Virus record (IMG/VR): IMGVR_UViG_3300015371_000004
Coordinates: 51,950 to 115,949 of that record
Strand: one strand, 5' to 3'
DNA length: 64,000 nt
DNA from: a virus
Below are positions 3,778 through 46,816 of the stretch, piece after piece. A model generated the notes under the pieces. That model did not search any database, was not told the origin of the DNA, and worked only from the letters and a program-made list of their open reading frames with translations. Both the position numbers and the translations under genes were made by a program. Each line of letters starts with the position of its first letter. The first letter of the stretch is position 1.

Positions 3778-4656
3778 TCAGTACGTCTCCCCCGGAGGTG
3801 GGGGGTCGAGCGGCCGATGCCGAATTCGCACCCCACGCCGCTTCACGTCGTCCACCCGCTGGCAGACGAAGTCAGTCGTGTCCCGGATGGTCGAGGTCAC
3901 GAGGAGCTTGTAGGCCCCCGGAAACCGCGTCGTCAGGGACTTCATCAAGCCCGTGTGGATCCCCGGCGCCAAGTCCGTCTCGCCCGCCAGCATGAAGGCG
4001 GCCTCGTCCATGACCCCCATCATCGTGTGATACCCAAAGACGGCCGTCGAGATACTCGACACCGAGAGCCCATAGATCCGCTTGGGGAAGCGGGCCTTGC
4101 GCGCCCCCGCCTTGAATCCCCGGCCGACAAACCATGGCGAGTGCTCGACGCGCGCCTTGAACTCGGTGAAGACGACGTCCGAGGCCTGATCCTTCGAGGA
4201 CGAAGCGTTCAAGACCGCAATGCGCGAATTCGGGCCCAGCATGTAGAAGAGGTCCGCCCGCCTGAGGCAGACGAGCTTGTAGATCGTCCGGGCCATGGCG
4301 CAGCCCGCGATGAAGCCCTTGCCAGAGCCCGAGCCCGCCAAGATGTCGACCTCCCGGACCTGCGGCAGGTCGAAGTAGATCATCAGGTCGACCTTGTCCT
4401 GATTGACCAGCCCTTTGAGGTTCAGGTACTTGGCGCCGAGCATGAACTCCTCGACGTCGACCGGGATCTCGTCGTAGATGAGTTCGTAGACGGCTTCGAG
4501 GCCGGAGAGGTCCCCGGCCTGCGCGCGCTTGAGCAGCCGGTAGATCGCGGTGCGATCCGAGGGCGTCAGCCGCCGGATCTCGTCGAAGGCGTCGAAGCGC
4601 TCCTCTTCAGTCGCGTCCGGCGGGAGAGTCGGGGTCGGATTGAGGGATCTTGGCAT
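3778..4656 (-). CDS. terminase large subunit, ATPase domain only
   Basis: IPVDVEEF..KYLNL N-terminus, AGSGSGKG Walker A, SKDQASDVVF, VMDEAAF Walker B, LLVTST motif III; no nuclease domain. Confidence 0.7.
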   Translation of the reverse strand: MPRSLNPTPTLPPDATEEERFDAFDEIRRLTPSDRTAIYRLLKRAQAGDLSGLEAVYELIYDEIPVDVEEFMLGAKYLNLKGLVNQDKVDLMIYFDLPQVREVDILAGSGSGKGFIAGCAMARTIYKLVCLRRADLFYMLGPNSRIAVLNASSSKDQASDVVFTEFKARVEHSPWFVGRGFKAGARKARFPKRIYGLSVSSISTAVFGYHTMMGVMDEAAFMLAGETDLAPGIHTGLMKSLTTRFPGAYKLLVTSTIRDTTDFVCQRVDDVKRRGVRIRHRPLDPPPPGETY

Positions 4657-5080
4657 CGGCCTGCGTGCGGGTGAACATCTCGATCACAGCCCGGGCACCC
4701 TGCACGGAGACCCCGGCTTCCTGCAGCTTCTCGGCCGCCGTCCGCGCGCGCTCGGCCTCAGCCTGATCCACGTCCTCGTCGAAGTCGACGTTCTTGGCCA
4801 TGCGCGAGAGGAGCGACATCTCGTTGTAGATTTTCGGGTCGACCTTGCCTTCGGCCCGCTCTCTGAGCACCATCACGGCCACCCGCCACCGCTGCACGTT
4901 GAAGGTCAGCCACGGGATCTTGGCAGGCGCGCCGGTCGTCAAGAGACCGAGCGCCTTGTCCATCTCGGCTTCGGCCTCCTGCAGCTTGCGCGACCCCTCC
5001 TCGTCAGAGGGTGGCGTAAGCGCCGACTCGTTCGCGTGCGGGAGATCCCGCTCGACGACGGTCGCAATGGACTCGCTCAT
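4607..5080 (-). CDS. hypothetical helical protein, possible terminase small subunit
   Basis: position immediately upstream of TerL ATPase; function inferred from synteny only. Confidence 0.45.
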   Translation of the reverse strand: MSESIATVVERDLPHANESALTPPSDEEGSRKLQEAEAEMDKALGLLTTGAPAKIPWLTFNVQRWRVAVMVLRERAEGKVDPKIYNEMSLLSRMAKNVDFDEDVDQAEAERARTAAEKLQEAGVSVQGARAVIEMFTRTQADAKIPQSDPDSPAGRD

Positions 5081-5639
5081 GTTTGGGTACCGGAACTTCG
5101 CACAAAATGGATCGGTGGGTCAACAGCCGCGCCAGCATCTCGGCGTAGCGCTTGGCGATCCGGCTCTCACTGGCGGCAAAGTACGTGGCGGCCTGCGCCA
5201 GATGCTGCCGGACCCGTGGCGACGGCAGCCCGACCCGCTTGGCCGTCTCGGCCTGCGAGGACGTCTGCGAGAACTCCGCCAGAATCTGGGGCATGTGCTC
5301 GGGCGCATCCGGCCAGACCCGGCCCAGATCTCGCCGGACCTCCCAGATCATGAGTCTCGGATGGTCAAGGAGAAACGCTAGCCGCTCGCAGGCGCGCTGC
5401 ATGCGATGGCTGACGGCTTGCTGGGTGAGGTGCAGGGCCTCCCCAATTTGGTCCTGATTTTTTCCGGCGAAGAAATGCAGCTCGATGACGTCACGCTCGA
5501 CTGGCGGGATGGTCTTGAGCAGGCGGCGGACTTGGAGGAGGCGCTCCGGGTTGTGCTCGTCGGCAGGCCGCACAAACTCGATCCATGACCGCAGGTGGAA
5601 GGTCTCGGGATCGATGTCGGTGAGGCTCAGCTCGCGCAT
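5004..5639 (-). CDS. sigma-70 region-4-like HTH protein with a second HTH
   Basis: IPPVERDVIELHFFAGKNQDQIGEALHLTQQAVSHRMQRACERL, plus SQAETAKRVGLPSPRVRQHL. Confidence 0.7.
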   Translation of the reverse strand: MRELSLTDIDPETFHLRSWIEFVRPADEHNPERLLQVRRLLKTIPPVERDVIELHFFAGKNQDQIGEALHLTQQAVSHRMQRACERLAFLLDHPRLMIWEVRRDLGRVWPDAPEHMPQILAEFSQTSSQAETAKRVGLPSPRVRQHLAQAATYFAASESRIAKRYAEMLARLLTHRSILCEVPVPKHERVHCDRRRAGSPARERVGAYATL

Positions 5640-5643
5640 CGGC

Positions 5644-5838
5644 TCACTGAATCGGGAGATGCTGGAGGAGCCACCACCCGTTTTCGGGTAGCTCGGGATG
5701 CTGCTTGAGGTGACGCTCAAGAAGATAGAAGCCAAGGTTCTTGGCCGCGCAGGGCGTTTCCCCTATCGTCTCGAACATCAGCTGCTGTCCCGTCCCCTCC
5801 GTGAAGATCGTTTGGTACTTCCGGACCGGTCGACTCAC
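5644..5838 (-). CDS. hypothetical protein
   Basis: fills gap between NusG-like and sigma-4-like genes with GTGA overlap. Confidence 0.5.
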   Translation of the reverse strand: MSRPVRKYQTIFTEGTGQQLMFETIGETPCAAKNLGFYLLERHLKQHPELPENGWWLLQHLPIQ

Positions 5839-6329
5839 ACCCGCTCCAGCTCGTACAACGCCGCTCGTACCGAGATGTGCCTAGAGTGTAACCGAATTTG
5901 GACATCGGCACGATTTTGCCGTTTGTCGACCCGCTGCACCTTCCCGGTCATGCCCGTCCATGCCCCCAAGAGGAGGCGCACTTTCGAGCCCCGCCGGAGG
6001 AGCCGCGGACGCACCGACCGCCGGACGTCCTTCATCTGGGTCGGCGACAGCCGTTCGAAGGCCTGCCCGTCCGAGGTTCGTACAAGTTTGTCCACAAAAC
6101 GCGACCGCTCGACGCGCTGCACGTGCGCGTCCGGGCTCACCTCAAGGAAGGCGTAGCCCCCGTAGGCGTGGGCCCATGCGATGGTACCGGTGCAAGTTTC
6201 CGCAGGAAAGAAGACGCGAACGCCCGGCAGGTACCGGGCGAAGTCTCTCTGGATGTCAGCCGTGGGGACGTCGGACACCGTGTCCGCCAGCATTGCAATC
6301 ACCCACTCGCTGGCCGCACGCTTTGCCAC
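5835..6329 (-). CDS. nusG: NusG-family transcription factor (NGN + KOW)
   Basis: VFFP...YGGYAFLE NGN-like region; GSKVRLLLGAWTGMTGKVQRVD KOW motif. Confidence 0.75.
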   Translation of the reverse strand: MAKRAASEWVIAMLADTVSDVPTADIQRDFARYLPGVRVFFPAETCTGTIAWAHAYGGYAFLEVSPDAHVQRVERSRFVDKLVRTSDGQAFERLSPTQMKDVRRSVRPRLLRRGSKVRLLLGAWTGMTGKVQRVDKRQNRADVQIRLHSRHISVRAALYELERV

Positions 6330-6356
6330 TCTGAGGCGAGGACTTTACCACAACCG

Positions 6357-7079
6357 CTAGTGGGTCCCCTGCACAACATGCCTACTCAGAAGGTCAGTCA
6401 GGACGTTCGTCTGCCCGATTTGCAGCAGGGCGCCTGCATCTTTGGCGGGATACACCGGGGCGGATACCACGAACCCCTCGAAGGTTCCCATCTGCTGGAG
6501 CTTGAAGGCCGCGGCCCGACCGGGGAGGTCCGTGTCGAGGAGCGCCACCACCAGCTTGGCGTACCGACCAAGGAAGCGCCGCATGGGTCCCGCCACATTG
6601 GCGGTCAGGTTGGCGATCACGTCCGGCGCGCCCGCCGCGCGCACCCCGAAGTAGTCGAAGACGCCCTCCACCAAGACGACGCGCTGGCTCAGCCAGACAG
6701 CCGGGAGGGCTTCGTGCATGCCGAAGGCCCGCGGGTGGGCGCGGCTGACTTGGAAATCCGAATAGGCGTTCTGGCCTGCTTCGAGCTGGTCCGGAAGGAG
6801 CCTGACCTGAAACCCCGTCACACTGCCCATCGGATCCTTCAAGGGGAAGACGAGCCCGCCCCAGACCGGCCAGTGCTTGGTGGCCCACCCCAGAAAGGCC
6901 TTCGTGCCCACCGTGATCGGAGACAGGACCCCCACGTCATGGGCGGCAGCCACCTCCAGCGGGACCCCGCGCCCTTCGAGATAGGCGCGCGCGGCGCTCG
7001 CGTCGGGCGCCGACTGCAGGGCGTCAGAGGACCGTTTGACTAGCTCGCGGGTCCACGGACTTGAAGACGGTTCCGCCAT
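6357..7079 (-). CDS. DnaG-like primase catalytic/TOPRIM core lacking Zn finger
   Basis: ARAYLEGRG, LVFPLKDPMGSVTGFQVR, VLVEGVFD, LDTDLPG..AA, KDAG. Confidence 0.8.
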   Translation of the reverse strand: MAEPSSSPWTRELVKRSSDALQSAPDASAARAYLEGRGVPLEVAAAHDVGVLSPITVGTKAFLGWATKHWPVWGGLVFPLKDPMGSVTGFQVRLLPDQLEAGQNAYSDFQVSRAHPRAFGMHEALPAVWLSQRVVLVEGVFDYFGVRAAGAPDVIANLTANVAGPMRRFLGRYAKLVVALLDTDLPGRAAAFKLQQMGTFEGFVVSAPVYPAKDAGALLQIGQTNVLTDLLSRHVVQGTH

Positions 7080-9151: not shown

Positions 9152-9342
9152 TCCACTCCTCGACGCTTCAGCTCCTCGGTGATGATCTGGATCCGGGTCT
9201 CGCAGAACTCCACGTTCTCCGCGCGCGGGTCCGCGTCGCGGTCCAGCTTGAACGCCTCCCGCAGCTGCACGAGCCGATCATCAGGCCAGATCGGCGACCG
9301 GTAGAAGGCGCGCGCGTCGTCGTGGCTGCTCCGTGTTTTCAC
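9148..9342 (-). CDS. hypothetical protein
   Basis: overlapping start/stop with neighbours. Confidence 0.5.
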   Translation of the reverse strand: MKTRSSHDDARAFYRSPIWPDDRLVQLREAFKLDRDADPRAENVEFCETRIQIITEELKRRGVE

Positions 9343-10346
9343 GCCACCGCCTCCTCCGCCGCCGTCAGGTACTGCTGGACCCGCGCGCGCACATCGTCTT
9401 CCACGTCGAGCGCCGCGACCCGCTCCGAGAGGGACTGCGTCGACACCAGCGACAGAAAGTCGTCGGCGATCTGCTGCCCCAGCCCGGCCTCGAACTGCGC
9501 GGCTACAGTCTTCTCGTACGCGTAGCGTTTTAGATCAAAAATTTTCTCGGCCGGTTCGACCTTGAGCTTGACAAGGTGTCCCTTGAACTCAAACGTCAAC
9601 CCGTCCTCGCCCTGCGGGCCCATATACTCTGTGATACCCGCATAGATCGTTCGCTGCAGCTCCTCCCCCGCCAACGACCCACGCCCAAGCGCGCCGAAGT
9701 TCAGGAAGAGCTTGGACCCCACGCGCTGCGTGGCGACGGCCGAATGATCGTGGCCGAAGTGGTAGACCTGAAACGGATAGGCCGCCAGCGCTTCATAAGA
9801 GAGCACAGTCTGCCCAAAGAACTGCCCGCCGGTCTTCGACGCAAACGCGTGCGCGAGCACGATGGCAGGCTGGAACGTGCTGACCGTCTTGGCCACCGCC
9901 GCCCACTTGGCCGGGTCCTTCGCGTCCGGCCATGGGATCCCTACGATCTGGACCGGCATAAGCGCAATGCCCTCTAGCCTGACGTCCGTCGGCACGTGGT
10001 AGGGCTGGTAGGACACGTCGATCAGCGCGCCCGTCTCGAAGAGCACCCCGAGGGGCGTCGTGCTGAGCGAGTCGAGCCGGTTGTAGCGCTCGTCGTGATT
10101 GCCGGGAATTGCCAGCACCGGGACGCCCACCGTCTTCAGCCACGCGGCCAGTCGCGCGACGATCGCGTAGGACGTGTTCACCGAATTGAACAGATCCCCG
10201 GCCACCGCGATGACGTTGACCTTCTCCAGCTGCGCAATCTCGGCGACCTGATCGAGCTTGCGGAACATCGTGTCCGGCCAGCTGTCGAGTCGGCTCGACG
10301 GGGTCAGATGCCAAAGATGCCAGTCGTTCGTGTGGAGACACTTCAT
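9339..10346 (-). CDS. SbcD/Mre11-like metallophosphoesterase nuclease
   Basis: DWH, GDLF, PGNHD, LAH, GHDH motifs. Confidence 0.85.
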   Translation of the reverse strand: MKCLHTNDWHLWHLTPSSRLDSWPDTMFRKLDQVAEIAQLEKVNVIAVAGDLFNSVNTSYAIVARLAAWLKTVGVPVLAIPGNHDERYNRLDSLSTTPLGVLFETGALIDVSYQPYHVPTDVRLEGIALMPVQIVGIPWPDAKDPAKWAAVAKTVSTFQPAIVLAHAFASKTGGQFFGQTVLSYEALAAYPFQVYHFGHDHSAVATQRVGSKLFLNFGALGRGSLAGEELQRTIYAGITEYMGPQGEDGLTFEFKGHLVKLKVEPAEKIFDLKRYAYEKTVAAQFEAGLGQQIADDFLSLVSTQSLSERVAALDVEDDVRARVQQYLTAAEEAVA

Positions 10347-11545
10347 CCGAGGAGCGCCTCCAAGTCTTCGTCGATCTGGCCCTGCCCCAACGGGACCCGC
10401 TGGCCACAGACCGGGCAGATTTTCAGGTCATGCAGGGCAGTCGCCACCGCTCCCTCCGCCTGCTCAACGTCCTGACTCGACGCCCCGAAGGCCGCCTCTG
10501 CCATGCGCAGCGAGGCCAGCGCGTTCGCGAGCTGGTTCACCAGCGCGCGCAAGGCCGTCGCCGTGTCCATCGCTTTCGAGTACCCGAGCTGTGGACTTTC
10601 CGGAGGCGGGTGAAGGCCTTTGACCACCCAGAGCTTGCGGAGGCGCGCCGCCAGATCGGCCACGCGCCAGTGACGCTCTTGCAGGACTTCGATGCCCGAC
10701 GGCTCCCGGGCCGGAGGCAGCTCGACCATGACCCCCTTCTGGAGAGCTGCACGCTTGGGGATCAGGTTGGCCAGACGCTGGCCGATGTTCGCCTGCGCTT
10801 CAATCGGCCCAAGGTCGACGGCTGTGGGGAGGTCGGCAGCCACCGCGGCCTGCAGCATCCGGCGCCGTGCCAGCGCCGCAGTCAGGCGGGAGACCCGGTC
10901 ACGCAGGGCATCAACCCGCACACTCTCCAGCTTCAACCGCTCGACCGCCTCCACGAGCTTCGCGACCGGCGGCTCGATCGTCTCCACAATCGCCTGTGCC
11001 TTGGTCAGGTCTGCCCGCCTCAGCCCCAGCAGCTGGCGCGCCGACCTAAGATCCTTGGCGCACGCCGCGCTCGCCCGAAGCAGAATGTCCAGCCGGGACG
11101 CCCGCGTGAGGATCTCGCTGACCGTGCTCCCCGGCAGCTGCAGCATGAAGATCGGATCCAGCTGGCCCCCGACCTGCGGGCGGATCGACTCCTTGTCATC
11201 GAGCTTCAGATCCCGGTAGCCCGCGTCGACCAGTGGCTGTGGCGCGTAGCGGTTCACGTTGGTGAAGGGCTCACCGTTCACCGAGAACTCGTTCACGCTC
11301 TTGCCCTTCTCCCAGACCACATGAAGCGGCGGCCCGTCCTTGGCCGGAACGTCCGTCAGCTCGACGCGCGTCTTTGACTCGCCCTTGCGGACGAAGCCTG
11401 CGCCCGGCCGATTGAAGAGGGCCCCGGTCACCGCCCGGATCAGCGCGCTCTTGCCGAGGTTCGAGCGGCCGACGATCACCGTCAGCCCCTCAGCTTCCAC
11501 CTCGGCTGATTCGAGCGACTGGAAATTTTTAACGGAGATTTTCAT
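10343..11545 (-). CDS. SbcC/Rad50-like N-terminal half (Walker A to zinc hook)
   Basis: VKNFQS, GRSNLGKSA, Q-loop, coiled coil, terminal CPVCG hook. Confidence 0.85.
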   Translation of the reverse strand: MKISVKNFQSLESAEVEAEGLTVIVGRSNLGKSALIRAVTGALFNRPGAGFVRKGESKTRVELTDVPAKDGPPLHVVWEKGKSVNEFSVNGEPFTNVNRYAPQPLVDAGYRDLKLDDKESIRPQVGGQLDPIFMLQLPGSTVSEILTRASRLDILLRASAACAKDLRSARQLLGLRRADLTKAQAIVETIEPPVAKLVEAVERLKLESVRVDALRDRVSRLTAALARRRMLQAAVAADLPTAVDLGPIEAQANIGQRLANLIPKRAALQKGVMVELPPAREPSGIEVLQERHWRVADLAARLRKLWVVKGLHPPPESPQLGYSKAMDTATALRALVNQLANALASLRMAEAAFGASSQDVEQAEGAVATALHDLKICPVCGQRVPLGQGQIDEDLEALLG

Positions 11546-12809: not shown

Positions 12810-13304
12810 CTACCCCCTGCATCTGCGAACGAGGCCCATGAAGGTCTGGGCGTCCACCACGGCGTATAGCCGCGATCCCGCGCGTCTGAAAAACAGCACC
12901 GCCGTCGGTTGATCCTTCGTCACGGCAGCTTCCGCCTGCTTGAGCGCCTGCCAGATATTGAGCTGCTCTTGATTCTTGACTTCGGTCGCAAACGGAAACT
13001 GGGCGCTCGCGAACGGAGAGAAATGCAGGTCGACGCCCATCTGCGCGCCCGCTTTCACCCAGACGTCGCCGTCCTGCAGCCCCAGCTTGTCCCGGATGAG
13101 GGCCGCCACTTCCAGCACGGCCGCCCGGCCCTTCTGCTTCGAGCTTTGGCCCCCGCCCTTCGCGCGCCCGACGCTGCGGGACTTCAGCACGGCTTCCGCT
13201 CGCCGCGCGTACACCTTCCAGCACTCGTTGCAGTCCCGCCGCTTTCCGGACGGCAAGTTCGGAAAGCGCGGCAGACGGCCGTGCTCGTCACAGACCGGCT
13301 GCAC
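12810..13304 (-). CDS. Holliday junction resolvase-like PD-(D/E)XK nuclease
   Basis: SKQKGR..E, GVDL, FATEVKNQE..NIWQALKQA. Confidence 0.7.
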   Translation of the reverse strand: MQPVCDEHGRLPRFPNLPSGKRRDCNECWKVYARRAEAVLKSRSVGRAKGGGQSSKQKGRAAVLEVAALIRDKLGLQDGDVWVKAGAQMGVDLHFSPFASAQFPFATEVKNQEQLNIWQALKQAEAAVTKDQPTAVLFFRRAGSRLYAVVDAQTFMGLVRRCRG

Positions 13305-14126: not shown

Positions 14127-14176
14127 AGGGGAATTCTCCAGAAAATTTTGTGGGCCGAAGTTGGCCGTCGTGGCAG

Positions 14177-14593
14177 TTATACCCCGCGGCCCGGGTATTC
14201 TTTCGGCGGCCCAATGACCCCCGCCAGCCCGTCCTCGTAGTCCGTCTTGGGCTTGTAATTGTAGTCGTTGGCGTAGCCCATCACCCGCTTGAGAGCCGTC
14301 CCCATGACGTAGCTCACCCGCAGCCGCTCCCGCTTGACCTCGAAGAGTGCGCCGGTCGTCGGGTCCCGCCGCCGGGTCGCCGACAGCCGCTTGGTCCGGA
14401 GCGCGCCGAGGCCCGCCGGGAACTGGTACTTGCCCAGCTCGAACAACGACTTGAAGAGGCTCCGGATGACCACCATGTACAGTTCCTTCATCAGGTCCCG
14501 GCTCACGTGGTGCTGGTGCTTCTTGAGGTATTCCCGCGTGAGGGTCGCCATCTCGGCAAAGGCCTCTTCCTTGTAGTCCTTCTGATTCTTCAT
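14177..14593 (-). CDS. HU/IHF-family DNA-binding protein
   Basis: GLGALRTKRLSATRRRDPTTGALFEV...VSYVMGTALK beta-arm pattern. Confidence 0.7.
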   Translation of the reverse strand: MKNQKDYKEEAFAEMATLTREYLKKHQHHVSRDLMKELYMVVIRSLFKSLFELGKYQFPAGLGALRTKRLSATRRRDPTTGALFEVKRERLRVSYVMGTALKRVMGYANDYNYKPKTDYEDGLAGVIGPPKEYPGRGV

Positions 14594-14597
14594 CGGC

Positions 14598-15143
14598 TCA
14601 CTCCAGTATGTCTTCGAGACGCTCGTCGGCCGCCTCACGTTCCACCGGCTCGCGGGCATAGAAGGCGCGCACACCCGCCTGCGCCTGATCGACGTCCGGG
14701 TCGGTCGTCGCACGAATCGTTTCGGCCTCGGTCACGGGCGGCGGCCGGTACCCGGGGGCCTGCATCCCCACCTTCAGGCACTCCAAGAGCAGACGCACAT
14801 CCGAGGAGACCCGTGCCAGCTCCCGGCGCCGGACATGCGCGCTCTCCAACAGGAACTTCAGGCGCTCGTGCTCCGTCCGGATCACGTCGAGCTTCTCCCG
14901 CTCGCCTGCCTTGGACGACGACGGCGAGATCCGGACCACGGCCTCCTGCGCGATGCGTGAGGGCAGCACCTCGCTGATGGCCCGATTGACCGCCACGACC
15001 ACCTCGGCGACCTCGGCCTGCTTCCCGCGGGCCTCGATCAGCTTCTCCTGCAGGTAGACCGGGCCGTACGTTGGGTCGTGCGCGATCGGCACGACCATCC
15101 GGTCGAGCGTCCGGTACAGCGCCTTAATGTCGTCGTCAGTCAT
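14598..15143 (-). CDS. hypothetical coiled-coil protein
   Basis: operon-coupled ORF. Confidence 0.6.
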   Translation of the reverse strand: MTDDDIKALYRTLDRMVVPIAHDPTYGPVYLQEKLIEARGKQAEVAEVVVAVNRAISEVLPSRIAQEAVVRISPSSSKAGEREKLDVIRTEHERLKFLLESAHVRRRELARVSSDVRLLLECLKVGMQAPGYRPPPVTEAETIRATTDPDVDQAQAGVRAFYAREPVEREAADERLEDILE

Positions 15144-15820
15144 AATCGACAGCTCTCATACGCCTCGGCCGCATTCGATCGTAGATGTTCTACCACGCGG
15201 GCAAGGAGCGCCGGGATCGACTGCCGGGCACTCGGCTTGTGCAAGAGGTACGACGGGTGCACCAGCGGGATCACCTGCAGGACGCGCGACGGAGCGTCAT
15301 CGAGACGCACGCGCATCGGGGCAAAGCTCATCTTCCCCATGCTCGGCGAATGCACCCCCAAGACAAACCGTGACGCCTCCTCGCCCAAGGTCAGGAGCAC
15401 CTCCACGTGCTCGAACGTCTTCAGCTCCTCGCGCAGCCACTTCGTCCCGCACACCTGCACTTCCTTTTTGGTGGGCTTCCGATCGTCGTGCGTGTGGCAC
15501 TTCACGAGATTCATCACCAGAATTTTCTGCCGGTCGATCGCCATAGCCTGCAACCAGTCGTTCAAGACATCGCCCGCCCGGCCAACGAAGGGGCTTCCGT
15601 ACTGGTCTTCCTCGCGCCCCGGGTTCCGCCCCAGCACGCCGATCCGCGCCAAGAGGGGGCCATCGCCGGGCACGACCCGCGTGGCCTCCAGCCGCGCCGA
15701 GCAGGCCGTGCAGGCCAGCAGATCCGCGTACCACGGCACGTCGCTGTACCACTGGACACCTGACGGCCGCGGCTCAGGTTCCCCGCCGAGGATCGCGTCG
15801 AGGTCGACCGCGTCACTCAC
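15140..15820 (-). CDS. uracil-DNA glycosylase family 4
   Basis: CTAC, VPGDG, GRNPGREEDQYGSPFVGRAG, NLVKC, HPSYLL. Confidence 0.9.
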   Translation of the reverse strand: MSDAVDLDAILGGEPEPRPSGVQWYSDVPWYADLLACTACSARLEATRVVPGDGPLLARIGVLGRNPGREEDQYGSPFVGRAGDVLNDWLQAMAIDRQKILVMNLVKCHTHDDRKPTKKEVQVCGTKWLREELKTFEHVEVLLTLGEEASRFVLGVHSPSMGKMSFAPMRVRLDDAPSRVLQVIPLVHPSYLLHKPSARQSIPALLARVVEHLRSNAAEAYESCRL

Positions 15821-17082
15821 GAGAGCAGCTGCTGGGCTTCCGGCCACAGCTCCACCTGACTCTCGGGCAGCGGCTGCACCGAGCCCCACGTCGACCCGGC
15901 GCTGACCGACCAGTGCATGGCCGCCCGCTCGCGCCAGCGCGCCACTGTCGGCGTCGTCACCAGCGTGGCGTGCAGCTCCCGTAGAAACCCCCGGACATCA
16001 GCGTCGACCGGCAGCTCGGCCGCGACGGCGTGCCGGGTCAGGATCATCCGGGCCCGCCACTGCTGGTCGAGCGCGCGCGCCAGCCACGCCAAGAGTTCGC
16101 CGGTCTCCTCGTAGACCCGCTGCTCCTGCGCTGGATACGCCGACAGCACGCCTTCATAGACCGAGGCCGACGGCAACCCCTGCGCCACTGCATACTCGTC
16201 CGGCGTGCTCCACGTGATCGGGTCCTCGTGAGCCGCCATGGCCGTCCGGACAAACGGCGTCGACAGGGAAAACTGGGCCCAAAATTTTCCGGACTCGGAT
16301 GGCACCGCGACTCGAAGTTCGGTCGGCAGCGTATTGAGCGCCGGGCCAGCCGCCGCAAAGGTCCAGTGCCGGTGGAACCGCCACACCGGGTTCAGGTAGA
16401 CGTAGATGCCATCCCGTTCCGACGAGGCCACGCTGGCTGCCAATCCCCCCGCGCGCTGCGCGCAGAGGTCAGCCCGGCGCCACTCCTCGTACGTCCTGAG
16501 CCAGACGGGATCTTGGCTCACGGTCTTCCACAGCTTCGACCGGCGCACCGCGCGCACCGCCACCGTCCCGAGCGCAGGCTTCAGGGCAGGCGTGAGCCGA
16601 TTGACGATCGCGACCTGCTCATCGACGACAGCCTTGTACTTGGCCTCATCGAACACGACACCGTGCCGATTGAGCGCCACCAGTACGGGCGCCACCACCG
16701 CATTTTCCACCGGGCGCGCCAAGGGCTGATCAACGAACATGGCTCGCTCGACCGCCGACTCCAGCGACGTCACATGCCAGTCCGCATCGACTCTCGCGAA
16801 CACCTGCTCGACGCTCAGGTCCTGCAGGTGGTCCCACGCGATCGACTGACGAATCCCCGGCTGCAACGTCCGCAGGACGTCGACCACGTCCCATGTCGAC
16901 ACGAGACCCCGATGCTCTGTGAGCACCGTCGCGCAGGCCATCCAGTCAGCCGACGTCCATTCCCGTGTGTCGCCGCCGTAGGCCTCGCCATCCCGGACTG
17001 CGACCAGATAGCCCGCCCCAGCAGCCAGACCCAGTCGGCCACCGATGCCCGTCAGCGCTTTCAGATCGTGGAAGGTCTTCAC
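15817..17082 (-). CDS. degenerate (apparently inactive) family-A DNA polymerase paralog
   Basis: PVLVALNRHGVVFD, GPALNTLP..LR, motif A position FSLSTPFVR, motif C position MILTRHAV, C-terminal SAGSTWG. Confidence 0.55.
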   Translation of the reverse strand: MKTFHDLKALTGIGGRLGLAAGAGYLVAVRDGEAYGGDTREWTSADWMACATVLTEHRGLVSTWDVVDVLRTLQPGIRQSIAWDHLQDLSVEQVFARVDADWHVTSLESAVERAMFVDQPLARPVENAVVAPVLVALNRHGVVFDEAKYKAVVDEQVAIVNRLTPALKPALGTVAVRAVRRSKLWKTVSQDPVWLRTYEEWRRADLCAQRAGGLAASVASSERDGIYVYLNPVWRFHRHWTFAAAGPALNTLPTELRVAVPSESGKFWAQFSLSTPFVRTAMAAHEDPITWSTPDEYAVAQGLPSASVYEGVLSAYPAQEQRVYEETGELLAWLARALDQQWRARMILTRHAVAAELPVDADVRGFLRELHATLVTTPTVARWRERAAMHWSVSAGSTWGSVQPLPESQVELWPEAQQLLS

Positions 17083-17579
17083 GCGAGCACCGGCTGAAGC
17101 GCGCCGAGCAGCGCCGCATGGTCCTTCTTCGTGATCCGGCCCGTCCGATCCACCCGCTCAATCACCGGGAGTAGCTCCGGCTTCGCCAGCAGGAACTCCC
17201 GCAGCTCACGGATGTAAAGGTCGTCGGCCTGCGTGGCGGCCTTCGCCGTCCGCGCGTCGAGCCGGTACTTGTTCTGCCACGGCCCGCCGCTGTCCACGCG
17301 GCTGTAGGCCCGATCGAGCTGGAGAGGATGCAACCGGCGGGAAGCAGCGCGATGTTTGTTCCGCGCGACACTTTGACACACGAGGTAGAGGTAGGACGTG
17401 AAGGCCGAGCGGTCCTTGGTGTAGCGGTCGAGCAGCCCGTACTTGTGCACGCGCAGGTAGACGTCCTGCACCATGTCATCAAGGTCCTCCTGCCCGATCG
17501 ACGTCACCGTCTTGAGGAAAGCCCGTATCTTGCCGTCGTAGCGCTCTACCAGTGCCTCTAGGGTCCGCGGTGCGTCCAT
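17079..17579 (-). CDS. ECF-like sigma factor, region 2 only
   Basis: LVERYDGKIRAF...DLDDMVQDVYLRV...SAFTSYLYLVCQSVARNKHR; no recognisable region-4 HTH. Confidence 0.75.
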   Translation of the reverse strand: MDAPRTLEALVERYDGKIRAFLKTVTSIGQEDLDDMVQDVYLRVHKYGLLDRYTKDRSAFTSYLYLVCQSVARNKHRAASRRLHPLQLDRAYSRVDSGGPWQNKYRLDARTAKAATQADDLYIRELREFLLAKPELLPVIERVDRTGRITKKDHAALLGALQPVLA

Positions 17580-17598: not shown

Positions 17599-17627
17599 TT
17601 AGACGTTGGGTTGGCCTAAATTGTTCC
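17599..17627 (-). promoter_or_regulatory. ECF-type promoter upstream of sigma-2 gene
   Basis: reverse complement GGAAC-N17-CGTCTAA, then AGGAG RBS. Confidence 0.75.
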
Positions 17628-22046: not shown

Positions 22047-22091
22047 TTAGACGTACGGAAGGCAGGAAAAGTTCAATTACAGGACTGTAAT
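22047..22091 (-). promoter_or_regulatory. ECF-type promoter with palindromic operator
   Basis: TGAAC-N17-CGTCTAA; ATTACAG-GA-CTGTAAT at 22076-22091. Confidence 0.75.
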
Positions 22092-22286: not shown

Positions 22287-23378
22287 CTACCCCGTCTCCA
22301 GCGTCTTCTTCCGGGCCTTGAGCCGGAAGCTCTTCCAGAGCCGCTTGTTGTGGATGACGAGCGCCGGGCCGCGCGCCGAGGCCACCAGCCGCGGCTCCCC
22401 CAGCTTGTTCGTGTCCCAGAGCCGGAACTCCGTGAAGAGCCCCCGGCGGACCACCCGCGGGACCACCTGCGAGACACCCCGATGAGCCTCCCGGATGTAG
22501 GGGTGCGGCGTGTAGCGCCCCTGCCGTGGGCCCGGCTTGAGCGCCCCCTGATCGGACAACCGGAGCGCCAGTTCCACCGAATTCGTCGCGTAGTCGGCGA
22601 TCACCCGGTAGCCCTTCTTCCGGAACCCTTCGAGCTTGTCCGTCAGCTTGTCGATGCTGCTGTCGCCCACGCCATCGAGCACGATGTCCTGCCCGTTGCT
22701 GAGCGCCTTCATGATCACCTTGAACGTGATGTCGCTGCTCTCCTCATGGCTGAGCGTCGAGGCCCGGTGGTCCCCGCCCAAGACCATCGCCTGATACTCC
22801 GGGATCCGCGCTTTGACCGCGTCCGGGTTGGCGTAGACCGCGAGGCCCGTCGGCGGGAACTTCACCAGCCCGGTATTGACCATGGTCGACTTGCCACTGG
22901 CCGGGCCGCCGCCCGTCATGTAGACCGTCTGGTTGGTGCTCTTCGGGATGCCGCGTGTCAGCTCGTCCACAATCCGGTCGTGGAGCTTCAGTCGCTCAGC
23001 CGTATAGACTCCGTCCTTCGAGTATATCTGCTTGGTGTCCGGCGGCAGCGCCTCGAAGTCCTCGCAGATCCCGGTGCCCTTCGGCGCGAACCGGCCGCCG
23101 ATGCCCGAGCCTGCGGGCTCATGGCAGCGGTTGAATTCCTGAAGACGCCGGGTCCAGTCCCGCCTCCGGCTGAGCAGGAAGTCAGCCCAGCTGACGTTTC
23201 CCGTCCGGCGTTTCCACTGCTGGAAATGGCTCTGCAGGACCTTGAGGACGCCAACCGCCGTGCCGCTGTCCGCCGGTCTTCCCCGATGGGAAGCGAAGCG
23301 GCCAAGCCGGTCGTGGTAGTGGTTGTACTCCCGGGTCCGCGGCAGCTCGGGCTCGGAATTCGAGGCGGGAACAATCAC
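22287..23378 (-). CDS. second zeta-toxin-family kinase with two peptide tags
   Basis: MTGGGPASGKST, NPDAVK, HEESS, VLDGVG, GYRV, LWDTN. Confidence 0.8.
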   Translation of the reverse strand: MIVPASNSEPELPRTREYNHYHDRLGRFASHRGRPADSGTAVGVLKVLQSHFQQWKRRTGNVSWADFLLSRRRDWTRRLQEFNRCHEPAGSGIGGRFAPKGTGICEDFEALPPDTKQIYSKDGVYTAERLKLHDRIVDELTRGIPKSTNQTVYMTGGGPASGKSTMVNTGLVKFPPTGLAVYANPDAVKARIPEYQAMVLGGDHRASTLSHEESSDITFKVIMKALSNGQDIVLDGVGDSSIDKLTDKLEGFRKKGYRVIADYATNSVELALRLSDQGALKPGPRQGRYTPHPYIREAHRGVSQVVPRVVRRGLFTEFRLWDTNKLGEPRLVASARGPALVIHNKRLWKSFRLKARKKTLETG

Positions 23379-25367: not shown

Positions 25368-25412
25368 TTAGACGTAAGGTAGGGTCAAAAGGTTCCATTA
25401 CAGAACTGTAAT
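25368..25412 (-). promoter_or_regulatory. ECF-type promoter with palindromic operator
   Basis: GGAAC-N17-CGTCTAA; ATTACAG-AA-CTGTAAT at 25397-25412. Confidence 0.75.
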
Positions 25413-27315: not shown

Positions 27316-27360
27316 TTAGACGTGTGGAAGGGGCAAAAGGTTCCAATTACAGAAGTGTAA
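27316..27360 (-). promoter_or_regulatory. ECF-type promoter with imperfect operator
   Basis: GGAAC-N17-CGTCTAA; ATTACAG-AA-GTGTAA at 27346-27360. Confidence 0.75.
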
Positions 27361-44608: not shown

Positions 44609-46816
44609 GTGTTCACCGTTCTCACCGACGACCAGTCGTTTGTCGGCGGCGCGCGCTCGTGGATGGCCTCCACGGACTACCGGCTGGCCACGTCTCCCGA
44701 TGACCTCTGGAACTACGCCGATGGCTATCTGCAGCGGGGGATCTCCCCGGCCGCCGACTTCGAAGCCACCGGGCTGAACGTCTGGACCGACAAGATCGTC
44801 GGCATGTCCCTCAGCTTCGAGAAGGGGCACGGCATCTACGCGCCCTGCCGCCACTTCGAAGGCGCCGAGTACAACATCCCCGTCCCCACGCTCGTCGAGG
44901 TCATCGACGCGATCGACAAGCGCGCCGACGAGTGCTGGTGGTACCACAGCGACTTCGACCATGAGATGGCCCGGAACGACTGGCGGTGGCAGCCGACGTT
45001 TGGCAAGTGGCGGGACGCCATGATCGGCGTCTTTCTGGAGTTCCCGGACGCGCTGACCCACGGCCTCAAGGACACGGCGTACCGGCTGCTCGGCTGCGAG
45101 CTGATCGAGTATCTGGAGATCATCGGCTACGTCAAGCGCAAGGGGCAGCCGATCCCCGGGTTCGAACGGGTCCATCCAGTCGATGCCCCGTCCTATGCCT
45201 GCGCCGACAGCGACTTCACCCGGCGGCTGGCGCGGCTCTCCATCGTCCAGAAGGCGATCAAGGACCAGTCGCTCATCTGGGATCTGGAGCACAAGATCCT
45301 GCCGCCCATCCGCGCCGGGATCGACCATGGGGTCCCGACCGACGGGATCTACCTGACGCTGCTCTCGGCTGACGTGCGCCGTCAGCTGGCGATCCTCGAA
45401 CAGGAGGTCAAGGAGGCGCTGGGCGTCCCCACCGACTTCAACCTCCGGAGCCGGGAGAAGCTGGGCGACCGGCTCGAAGCCCTTGGCGTGCCGGTCGCCG
45501 AGCGGGTCACAAAGATCAACCCGCGGACGGGCGCCGGGTTCATGTCGACACGGAAGGCCACGCTCGACCTCCATGCGGACCGGTTCCCGTTCTGCGCGTC
45601 CCTCGTGAAGTACGCCGAGCTGGGCGCCGCCGAGCGCAATTACATCCGCAAGGCGATTGCCGCGCGCGACCACTTCGGCCCCAAAGTCCGGATTGCCTTC
45701 AACACCATCGGCGCGCCGACCGGGCGCATGTCCTCCGGGGGCGCGGGAAGGACGCAGGCCGAGGCGTTCTCGAAGGGGTACGCGAACCTCAACGGGCAGT
45801 CATGGCCGGACCCGGAGAAGAAGGACTACCTGCCGGACGTCCGGGCGGGGGTGAGCGTGGCCGCGCTCGACACCGACGAGTGGGTCATCGTCGCCATCGA
45901 CTACGAGCAGGTCGAGCTGCGGGTCCTCGCCAACGTCTCGGGCGAGGAGGTCTGGGCGGAGTCCTTCCGGAAGGGGATCGACATTCACCGGACGACGTAC
46001 GCCACGGCCCACAATGTCCCGGTCGCGACGGTCGACAAGCCGAAGCGCAAGAAGGGCAAGACGCTCTCCTTCGCGATCGTCTATCAGGCCACCCCGAAGA
46101 CGGTCGCCAAGCAGGCCGGGATCCCGGAGGCCGAGGCCGACCGGCTCATCAAGGCCGTGCTCGACCGCTGCCCGCGCCTGAAGAAGTGGGTCCTCGCCAC
46201 CAAGGCCCATGCGGCGGCCTACGGGTTCGTCCAGACGTTCTTTGGCCGTCGGCGCGTGCTCAAGCATTACTTCGGGGGCGACTACTCCACCAAGGCCGCG
46301 AGGAAGCTGAAGGCGCAGGGGGAGCGTGAAGGCGTGAACGCGCCGATCCAAGGGGGAGCGGCCGACGTCTTCAAGATTGCCGTCTACAAGGTCGCCAAGC
46401 TCCTGCAGGGCCTACGTGCGGAGGAGGACTGGATCCCGATCATGTGGGTGCACGATGAGACGGTCTCCCTTGTCCGCCGGAGCCGCCTGTACGAGCTGCT
46501 GCCCAAGGTGGTCGAGACGATGGAGTTCAAGGTCAAGGGCTGGACCGTTCCCCTGAAGGTGGTGCCCGAAGTGGGCTGGAACTGGGGGCTGGACGACCGG
46601 CGCAACCGGGGCGCAGGGCTCCTCTCGTGGGGAACATGGTGCCAGCGGTACCCACCGGAGACGGCCTCGACGCCCTTGGTCTGCTGGCTGCCCGCCTCAG
46701 CCTACCCGGCGCCGCCGCCAGCCCCAGCTCCGGAGCCCGAGGACGAGACGCTCGACGATCTGCTCGATGAGGACCTCGACGACATCACCGATGCGCTCGA
46801 TGGGGACTCGGGGTAA
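44609..46816 (+). CDS. polA: family-A DNA polymerase with 3'-5' exonuclease
   Basis: DFEATG ExoI, YACAD ExoIII, TGRMSS, IDYEQVELR motif A, KTLSFAIVY motif B, NAPIQG, WVHDE motif C. Confidence 0.92.
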   Translation: MFTVLTDDQSFVGGARSWMASTDYRLATSPDDLWNYADGYLQRGISPAADFEATGLNVWTDKIVGMSLSFEKGHGIYAPCRHFEGAEYNIPVPTLVEVIDAIDKRADECWWYHSDFDHEMARNDWRWQPTFGKWRDAMIGVFLEFPDALTHGLKDTAYRLLGCELIEYLEIIGYVKRKGQPIPGFERVHPVDAPSYACADSDFTRRLARLSIVQKAIKDQSLIWDLEHKILPPIRAGIDHGVPTDGIYLTLLSADVRRQLAILEQEVKEALGVPTDFNLRSREKLGDRLEALGVPVAERVTKINPRTGAGFMSTRKATLDLHADRFPFCASLVKYAELGAAERNYIRKAIAARDHFGPKVRIAFNTIGAPTGRMSSGGAGRTQAEAFSKGYANLNGQSWPDPEKKDYLPDVRAGVSVAALDTDEWVIVAIDYEQVELRVLANVSGEEVWAESFRKGIDIHRTTYATAHNVPVATVDKPKRKKGKTLSFAIVYQATPKTVAKQAGIPEAEADRLIKAVLDRCPRLKKWVLATKAHAAAYGFVQTFFGRRRVLKHYFGGDYSTKAARKLKAQGEREGVNAPIQGGAADVFKIAVYKVAKLLQGLRAEEDWIPIMWVHDETVSLVRRSRLYELLPKVVETMEFKVKGWTVPLKVVPEVGWNWGLDDRRNRGAGLLSWGTWCQRYPPETASTPLVCWLPASAYPAPPPAPAPEPEDETLDDLLDEDLDDITDALDGDSG

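Follow-up and report, generated by a model that had tools for sequence, protein, structure and literature searches.

What is a DNA polymerase fold that lacks the catalytic residues of a polymerase doing between a sigma-factor gene and a uracil-DNA glycosylase (UDG) gene, in a virus that also encodes an intact DNA polymerase? The question is raised by a 64,000-nucleotide stretch of DNA (hereafter the window, to which all positions refer) that corresponds to bases 51950-115949 of IMGVR_UViG_3300015371_000004, a 115,949-bp linear IMG/VR virus record with an estimated completeness of 76% and a G+C content of ~65%. At 15817-17082 on the minus strand lies a gene of 421 codons with a GTG start, the product of which we call pseudo-PolA, as it shows the fold of a Pol I large fragment without the polymerase and exonuclease carboxylates. 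An original prediction, made from the sequence alone, had described it as a catalytically dead paralog of PolA that is translationally coupled to the sigma gene. We are highly confident that pseudo-PolA is a dead PolA-fold protein kept by selection, and the evidence for this is presented first; its role in the phage is then considered with less certainty.

Missed by sequence profiles, pseudo-PolA is recognisable by structure only. There were zero matches to the protein in Pfam, PHROGs and NCBIfam, none among PDB sequences using phmmer or hmmsearch, and none by tblastn in 50,697 phage records, and a k-mer-based homologue search found nothing. The family A polymerase profile PF00476 is absent from pseudo-PolA and from its four full-length relatives at E-values up to 0.1-1, and a six-frame search for PF00476 in the whole 116-kb record, at E up to 10, returned the intact PolA only. 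The G+C content at third codon positions (GC3) of the pseudo-PolA frame is 0.83, similar to the neighbouring genes, while a long antisense open reading frame (ORF) at 16030-17097 has a GC3 of 0.70.

An AlphaFold2 model of pseudo-PolA was built on A1, a five-sequence alignment and profile of the protein and its four full-length relatives, with a mean pLDDT of 79.4 and a pTM of 0.76. When this model was compared to the PDB using Foldseek, every listed match was a family A DNA polymerase (best E 2e-9, probability 1.00), and the listed matches comprise Pol theta, KlenTaq, M. smegmatis Pol1, apicoplast Pol and Pol nu. In BFVD, the named matches are almost all phage PolAs. Across Pol I large fragments, VIA-align gives Z-scores of 16-18.5 and a root-mean-square deviation (rmsd) of ~4 Å over 354-391 residues, including M. 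smegmatis Pol1 (Z 18.5, rmsd 4.0 Å, 354 residues), KlenTaq (Z 17.5) and Pol theta (Z 17.3). Residues 1-404 of the model cover residues 296-832 of KlenTaq, which is the whole large fragment including the vestigial exonuclease domain of Taq. Because the match in fold extends over the full length of the protein (Z 16-18.5), and because the protein is conserved on four other contigs, the likeness to PolA is not due to chance. The comparison with Klenow-type structures that the original prediction had proposed as a check thus returns a PolA fold along the full length of the protein. A T7-RNA-polymerase-like enzyme was also considered, and is ruled out by the top structural matches, which are all DNA PolAs, and by the absence of the catalytic Asp residues.

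The domains of a Pol I large fragment can be followed along the minus strand from the start of the gene. Residues 1-120 (17082-16723) form a vestigial 3'-5' exonuclease-like domain, which aligns to KlenTaq from residue 296 of that enzyme. Residues 125-220 (16710-16423) form the thumb, comprising an entry helix-strand and a long helical hairpin with a basic tip; AlphaFold2 places helices at 125-139, 146-171 and 192-218, and hhalign aligns this region to the PolA thumb. The N-terminal half of the palm (residues 221-285, 16422-16228) has PALNTLP in place of PNLQNIP, translated from 16324-16344, and SLSTPFVR in place of the motif A sequence DYSQIELR, translated from 16246-16269. A fingers remnant follows (residues 286-343, 16227-16054), with predicted helices at 294-300, 306-314 and 317-342 and with no O-helix or motif B. 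The C-terminal half of the palm (residues 344-404, 16053-15871) contains the motif C hairpin with the turn TRHA (16027-16038), a family-specific TTPxVxxWR insertion, and a terminal AG.TWG.

The assignment of these landmarks is supported by profile-profile alignment of A1 with A2, a profile of 17 PolA sequences, in which hhalign matches residues 130-283 to PolA residues 230-442 (E 2.7e-4, probability 42%). In this alignment, VAPVLVALNRHGVVFD falls on the thumb entry L.PVL..M..GV.LD, PALNTLP falls on PNLQNIP, ELRVAV falls on IR.AF, and FSLSTPFVR falls on motif A in a register that is at most one residue off. The PVL thumb entry, the PNLQNIP-like motif and SLSTPFVR at motif A had been placed in the same way in the original prediction. 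Motif C was located using the AlphaFold2 β-hairpin (strands 345-349 and 352-358) and its spacing to the terminal G.TWG, such that its register reflects predicted secondary structure and not a residue-level structural alignment. The turn of this hairpin, which corresponds to the site of Klenow D882/E883, reads TRHA, as had been claimed, and TRGA, VKGA, VRGA and VRGA in the relatives. There are 48 residues between this turn and AG.TWG, compared to 42 in Klenow, and the difference is made up by an extra short helix at 378-385 that carries TTPxVxxWR, the most conserved motif in the family. A weak C-terminal hhalign match (E 0.0076) puts AG.TWG on VG.NWG, and displaces motif C from this register by several residues.

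With the motifs mapped, we see that catalytic acids are missing throughout the family. The column that corresponds to the motif A Asp (Klenow D705) reads S/S/S/S/A in the five members, or L/F/I/L/L if the register is moved by +1, with no acid in either case. A register-independent scan for columns with at least three acids in the five sequences found none at residues 256-294, which span the motif A strand and helix, and none at residues 344-408. In the N-terminal domain, the Exo I strand (the first β-strand, LGLAAGAG) is free of acids in all five sequences and therefore lacks the D-x-E of Exo I; only D65 is invariant, and the domain does not qualify as an active DEDDy exonuclease. The fingers are strongly shortened, with ~60 residues in three helices linking the motif A helix to the motif C hairpin, compared to ~160 residues in Klenow, and the motif B/O-helix pattern R...K...F/Y...Y (R754, K758, F762 and Y766) is not present in the family alignment. 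In short, the earlier reading of a catalytically dead PolA fold with reduced fingers is borne out by the fold, by the motif mapping and by the family-wide lack of acids in the palm, the presence of which would have spoken for an active enzyme. As the carboxylates of the polymerase and Exo I sites have been lost, along with most of the fingers, O-helix included, pseudo-PolA is predicted to be unable to bind dNTPs, polymerise or proofread by canonical two-metal chemistry. A split but active polymerase, such as those produced by the exo/pol fission of S-SBP1-type phages, was rejected, because pseudo-PolA lacks both catalytic motifs and the phage has an intact PolA besides.

The protein is nonetheless conserved. 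An exhaustive phmmer search against 1.84 billion representatives returned six proteins only, four of which are full-length relatives of pseudo-PolA (P0001, P0002, P0003 and P0005), with identities of 35-43% in the phmmer search and 32-41% in A1. All four are singletons from the Logan assemblies, found on contigs of 69,104, 116,863, 16,016 and 2,683 bp, respectively. The other two matches are fragments, one near-identical (P0004) and one short (P0006). No related loci were found in IMG/VR using the protein or profile A1, or in JGI metagenomes using A1. There are 46 invariant columns in A1, and the two palm halves are the most conserved parts of the protein, with a mean pairwise identity of 0.42 for the N-terminal half and 0.46 for the C-terminal half, against 0.29-0.33 elsewhere. 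The palm halves are rich in Trp and Arg, and W234, R235, F236, W240, R257, W268 and R279 are invariant in all five members. Since full-length relatives with 32-43% identity exist, all of them on Logan contigs, pseudo-PolA represents a small conserved family and not a decaying gene, and the full-length conservation across five lineages rules out a pseudogene or decaying duplicate. This is the conservation in relatives that the original prediction had suggested looking for.

The near-identical fragment P0004 is a 121-residue gene call on a JGI contig of 1,545 bp. Residues 23-121 of this call share 99% identity with the pseudo-PolA C-terminus, while residues 1 to ~29 match a peptide that has no relation to pseudo-PolA and is seen across many unrelated metagenome contigs. 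A metagenome scan with P0004 gave 135 matches, the best 80 of which all lie within residues 1-66, and mostly within 1-29, with none in the part that matches pseudo-PolA. The contig is probably chimeric, or the start of the gene call is wrong.

Pseudo-PolA is not the only polymerase-like protein encoded in the window. An intact family A DNA polymerase of 735 residues is found at 44609-46816 on the plus strand (PF00476 E 4.9e-65), as had been noted previously, and this is the sole PF00476 match in the 116-kb record. It retains the exonuclease residues D50/E52, motif A D431, motif B R480/K484/F488 and motif C D616/E617, all of which are invariant in alignments A2 and A4. No similarity between pseudo-PolA and this enzyme was detectable by BLASTP (E 0.13) or by hhalign with the intact PolA as the sole target (E 0.43), so the description of pseudo-PolA as a paralog is not demonstrable from these data. 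A comparable pairing is probable in a second phage: the relative P0002 (38% identity), a PolA orthologue (P0010, 56%) and a UDG orthologue (P0129, 56%) each have a longest contig of 116,863 bp, which is probably one and the same. An intact PolA and a UDG are thus probably present alongside pseudo-PolA in that phage, and on these identities pseudo-PolA probably evolves faster than both.

Profile A1 detected no pseudo-PolA in five IMG/VR phages with a related PolA. The complete 129,940-bp genome IMGVR_UViG_3300043579_000184 (G001), with a PolA of 34% identity, carries a syntenic block comprising the sigma region 2 gene, UDG, two ORFs, homologues of ORF272 and of a 164-residue ORF (both described below), and RecA. 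Two unannotated ORFs near the sigma-UDG locus of G001, of 415 and 348 residues, were checked as candidates and are unrelated to pseudo-PolA. As G001 has the sigma and UDG genes without pseudo-PolA, the gene appears to be lineage-specific: a sigma-UDG junction that is older than this arrangement either received it or lost it. There is accordingly no universal need for it on the part of sigma or of UDG. Two large and more distant phages, G002 and G003 (PolA 28% identity), have two intact PolAs each, one in an open frame of 954 residues and the other a 1016-residue fusion of UDG, 3'-5' exonuclease and PolA with a GEAAG motif 1 (3983-7033 on the plus strand of the G002 segment examined, with a counterpart in G003).

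The genes around pseudo-PolA form a tight five-gene operon on the minus strand. The first gene, at 17079-17579, encodes a sigma-70 family protein of 166 residues that matches PF04542 (Sigma70_r2, E 2.1e-7) and, below cut-off, the extracytoplasmic function (ECF) superfamily TIGR02937 (E 3.2e-8); region 2 is the only sigma region detectable by Pfam and NCBIfam. Pseudo-PolA is the second gene, and the third (15140-15820) encodes a 226-residue homologue of the family-4 (Fe-S) UDGs (PF03167 E 6.5e-29). This is followed by ORF181 (14598-15143), a helical protein without a match in Pfam, PHROGs or NCBIfam, and by a 138-residue gene (14177-14593) with a weak, below-threshold likeness to HU/IHF proteins (PF00216 E 0.099). 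The stop and start codons overlap in GTGA at both the sigma/pseudo-PolA and pseudo-PolA/UDG junctions and in ATGA at the UDG/ORF181 junction, while ORF181 and the 138-residue gene are separated by 4 nt, with a Shine-Dalgarno (SD) sequence. The public gene call for UDG, at 226 residues, agrees with the GTGA start. The 4-nt overlaps with sigma and UDG, read directly at both junctions as the original prediction had reported, support the translational coupling it proposed and favour co-ordinated synthesis of the three proteins. Because there is no SD ahead of either GTG, translation of both pseudo-PolA and UDG probably depends on coupling to the gene upstream.

Directly upstream of the sigma gene, at 17599-17626 on the minus strand, is the ECF-type promoter-like element GAAC-N17-CGTCTAA, a putative operon start that is followed by an SD (taggag) and an ATG. 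There are five exact copies of this element in the window, compared to 0.02 expected by chance; the others are at 141-168 on the plus strand and at 22047-22074, 25368-25395 and 27316-27343 on the minus strand. We interpret these as a putative set of ECF-type promoters, one copy of which would drive the operon of sigma, pseudo-PolA and UDG. No terminator-like sites were found between 11000 and 19200.

The wider surroundings are as follows. Genes from ~1 to 29 kb of the window are on the minus strand, and a replication module at 37-50 kb on the plus strand includes a SNF2-type helicase, a DnaB-type helicase, the 735-residue PolA and a HerA-like ATPase. Downstream of the operon on the same strand are ORF272, a 164-residue ORF, RecA (PF00154 E 1.8e-58) and a pair of SbcC-like and SbcD-like proteins. 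The sequence GGGGTATAAC at 14166-14176 on the minus strand overlaps the stop codon of the 138-residue gene, precedes ORF272, and matches a -10-only GGGGTANNAC element. The 164-residue ORF (12810-13304, minus strand) has no family match, but in our own reading a D...EVK pattern suggests a PD-(D/E)xK nuclease, and no other protein in the block held in common with G001 is as well conserved (54% identity). Just past RecA, at 9339-11545 on the minus strand, is a pair of genes whose products resemble, at their N-termini, an SbcD/Mre11-like phosphoesterase and an SbcC/Rad50-like ATPase, both below family cut-offs. Sigma-70 region 4 occurs without other sigma regions (PF04545 E 1.1e-15), but with a second helix-turn-helix, in a protein encoded at 5004-5735 on the minus strand, 12 kb from the region-2-only sigma. 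Finally, a 363-residue ORF at 22287-23378 on the minus strand contains a Zeta-toxin-type kinase domain (PF06414 E 5.8e-21).

What, then, might the protein do? A transcription co-factor, a UDG partner and a defence decoy were among the roles suggested in the original prediction. We propose that pseudo-PolA is a pseudo-enzyme that would have descended from a family A (Pol I-type) polymerase while keeping its exo-like/thumb/palm architecture, and that a single transcript from the ECF-type promoter would yield it together with sigma and UDG. Without catalysing a reaction itself, it would serve phage DNA repair or replication as a scaffold, in which the retained thumb/palm cleft, or the Trp/Arg-rich palm, may bind DNA or a partner protein. 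The co-translated UDG would be its likeliest partner, making the pair an unfused and role-inverted counterpart of the UDG-PolA fusions known from other phages. In those fusions the exo and pol domains hold the UDG between them, and in the N4-like enzymes the UDG is catalytically dead (PMC10201439). The context is consistent with this proposal, as UDG, RecA and the SbcC/SbcD-like pair are all downstream on the same strand. The UDG itself resembles T. thermophilus UDGa (1UI0, E 3.6e-28), scores 115.5 bits against TIGR00758 (below the cut-off of 125.3), and retains the four Fe-S Cys residues and equivalents of the uracil-pocket residues N80, F54 and E47 and of the catalytic H155 in UDGa numbering. 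We consider it reasonably probable that pseudo-PolA is a non-catalytic accessory in DNA metabolism. The complete explanation, of a dead family A scaffold with a repair or replication role and UDG as its likeliest partner, has in our estimation slightly better than an even chance, while the specific assignment of UDG as the partner is tentative and falls well short of that.

Several observations weigh against this proposal. Several of the canonical contacts that Pol I makes with the primer terminus seem to be lost, in that the TGR arginine lies in a deleted region and conservation does not extend to the Q of PNLQNIP, and DNA binding in the Pol I mode is for this reason possible but not assured; R257, which aligns with the R of the PolA consensus IR.AF, is invariant, and a palm that binds protein is an equally open possibility. 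The UDG has R-N at the motif 1 doublet, and not E-G/A (E41-G42 in UDGa); RN is present in five of seven kin, including the closest, with QN and ST in the other two. In T. thermophilus UDGa, the E41Q change alone cuts activity 888-fold, although paired changes can rescue it (PMC5387724). The doublet leaves the activity of the phage UDG uncertain, and its activity or specificity may be altered. In G001, the sigma and UDG genes are ~200 nt apart with nothing between them (ORFs at 5230-5784 and 5988-6692 within C1:38000-50000). The gene order is also at odds with the known fusions: these have UDG at the N-terminus, and in the window the UDG gene follows that of pseudo-PolA.

Other mechanisms can be proposed from the same data, and behind an accessory role with UDG we rank, in descending order, a replisome or recombination scaffold, a sigma co-activator, an anti-defence protein and a cryptic enzyme. 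The link to transcription comes from the GTGA overlap that couples pseudo-PolA to a sigma with no detectable region other than region 2, from the separate encoding of a region 4 protein at 5004-5735, and from the -10-only-like element GGGGTATAAC at the next gene boundary. Pseudo-PolA bound to DNA ends, nicks or forks could activate or tether sigma-RNA polymerase at -10-only promoters, so that late transcription would be coupled to replication. In T4, the sliding clamp gp45 together with gp55 and gp33 couples late transcription to replication. In G001, however, the same sigma gene immediately precedes UDG and pseudo-PolA is missing, and we judge a sigma co-factor to be unlikely. Less likely again is a more specific form of this idea, in which pseudo-PolA would sense primer ends, nicks or gaps and co-activate the co-translated region-2-only sigma, as a T4-like switch built from a polymerase, and might also hand uracil-containing or abasic DNA to the UDG. 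If true, such a protein would be part of a replication-coupled late-transcription switch analogous to T4 gp45/gp33/gp55.

A subunit of the replication or recombination machinery, serving as a scaffold for the active PolA, RecA, SSB or a helicase, or competing with PolA for primer ends, has precedents in inactivated polymerases that act as scaffolds (PMC2669801, PMC12132391). RecA, the conserved nuclease-like ORF and the SbcCD-like pair downstream on the same strand would suit such a function, as would the co-occurrence of an intact PolA here and probably on the 116,863-bp contig of P0002. The gene is nevertheless located outside the replication module of DnaB, PolA and helicases, which is at 37-50 kb on the other strand, and we hold this to be somewhat unlikely, although it stands above the sigma co-factor in our ranking. 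The defence protein Avs19 recognises family A polymerases by their fold (PMC13581612), which raises the idea of a PolA-shaped decoy or inhibitor acting against sensors or nucleases with which the host detects the fold of the phage polymerase. The status of pseudo-PolA as a lineage-specific add-on would agree with this, as would its faster evolution (38% identity, vs 56% for PolA and UDG between the same two phages). But Avs proteins are activated by target binding, such that a decoy would be expected to trigger Avs19 and not to block it, which disfavours a simple decoy; the gene is moreover embedded in a repair-type operon with no defence-related neighbour seen, and the idea is very improbable. 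The strong conservation of the palm, with its invariant Trp, Arg and Phe residues and the TTPxVxxWR insertion, could also reflect a cryptic enzyme that uses non-canonical residues such as the conserved palm Arg, His or Trp. As the palm strands carry no conserved acid, and as fingers that could grip a nucleotide are absent, this is the most improbable of the mechanisms considered, and we know of no precedent for it.

Returning to the dead family A scaffold, the finding has some general implications. Proteins of this type are invisible to profiles and are thus probably under-counted among phage hypothetical proteins; a look-up in the ESM Atlas, which should be regarded as a lead only, showed viral clusters of 404-430 residues with little or no PF00476 signal. 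The exact coupling to sigma and UDG provides testable hypotheses on how phages link repair, replication and transcription, and a natural 'fingerless' Pol I scaffold offers a way to study the thumb and palm alone. No conserved dead family A polymerase was described in the literature we searched, where the cases of polymerases turned scaffolds are family B only.

Compared to the family A large fragments of KlenTaq, Klenow, M. smegmatis Pol1 and Pol theta/nu, residues 1-404 of pseudo-PolA have the same architecture of vestigial exo-like domain, thumb and palm, and the thumb-entry, PNLQNIP-like and terminal G.NW-like motifs occur in the same order. It differs from them in having no PF00476 signal, in its length (421 residues vs ~540-600), in the loss by all five members of the carboxylates at motif A (Asp), motif C (Asp/Glu) and Exo I (Asp/Glu), in fingers of ~60 residues without an O-helix, and in the family-specific TTPxVxxWR insertion. 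The late transcription system of T4 (gp55, gp33 and gp45) likewise uses a region-2-only sigma, and in the present phage such a sigma gene adjoins that of a replication-derived protein in a genome with -10-only-type elements. The partner in T4 is a clamp, whereas here the neighbour is a dead polymerase, and G001 has the sigma without it.

Closer in principle are the inactivated family B polymerases that serve as scaffolds, namely the C-terminal half of Pol epsilon, herpesvirus UL8 and poxvirus F12 (PMC2669801, PMC12132391, PMC4304020). In these, too, a polymerase fold is under selection although the catalytic residues are gone, and they are presumed to be structural components or adaptors, but they belong to family B, occur in eukaryotic, archaeal or eukaryotic-virus hosts, and have no link to a UDG or a sigma. 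The UDG-PolA fusions of N4-like cluster 17 phages and of SPO1 and its kin (PMC10201439) resemble our locus in that family-4 UDG and PolA-fold modules are expressed together, and in that one of the two activities is dead in some fusions. Czernecki et al. 2023 also describe fission of exo and pol genes, and no dead PolA is described there (PMC10201439). The fusions are single polypeptides, while pseudo-PolA and UDG are encoded by separate genes that overlap by GTGA. The fusions pair an active polymerase with a UDG that is often dead, and here the arrangement is the reverse, with a dead polymerase alongside a UDG that keeps most of its pocket residues.

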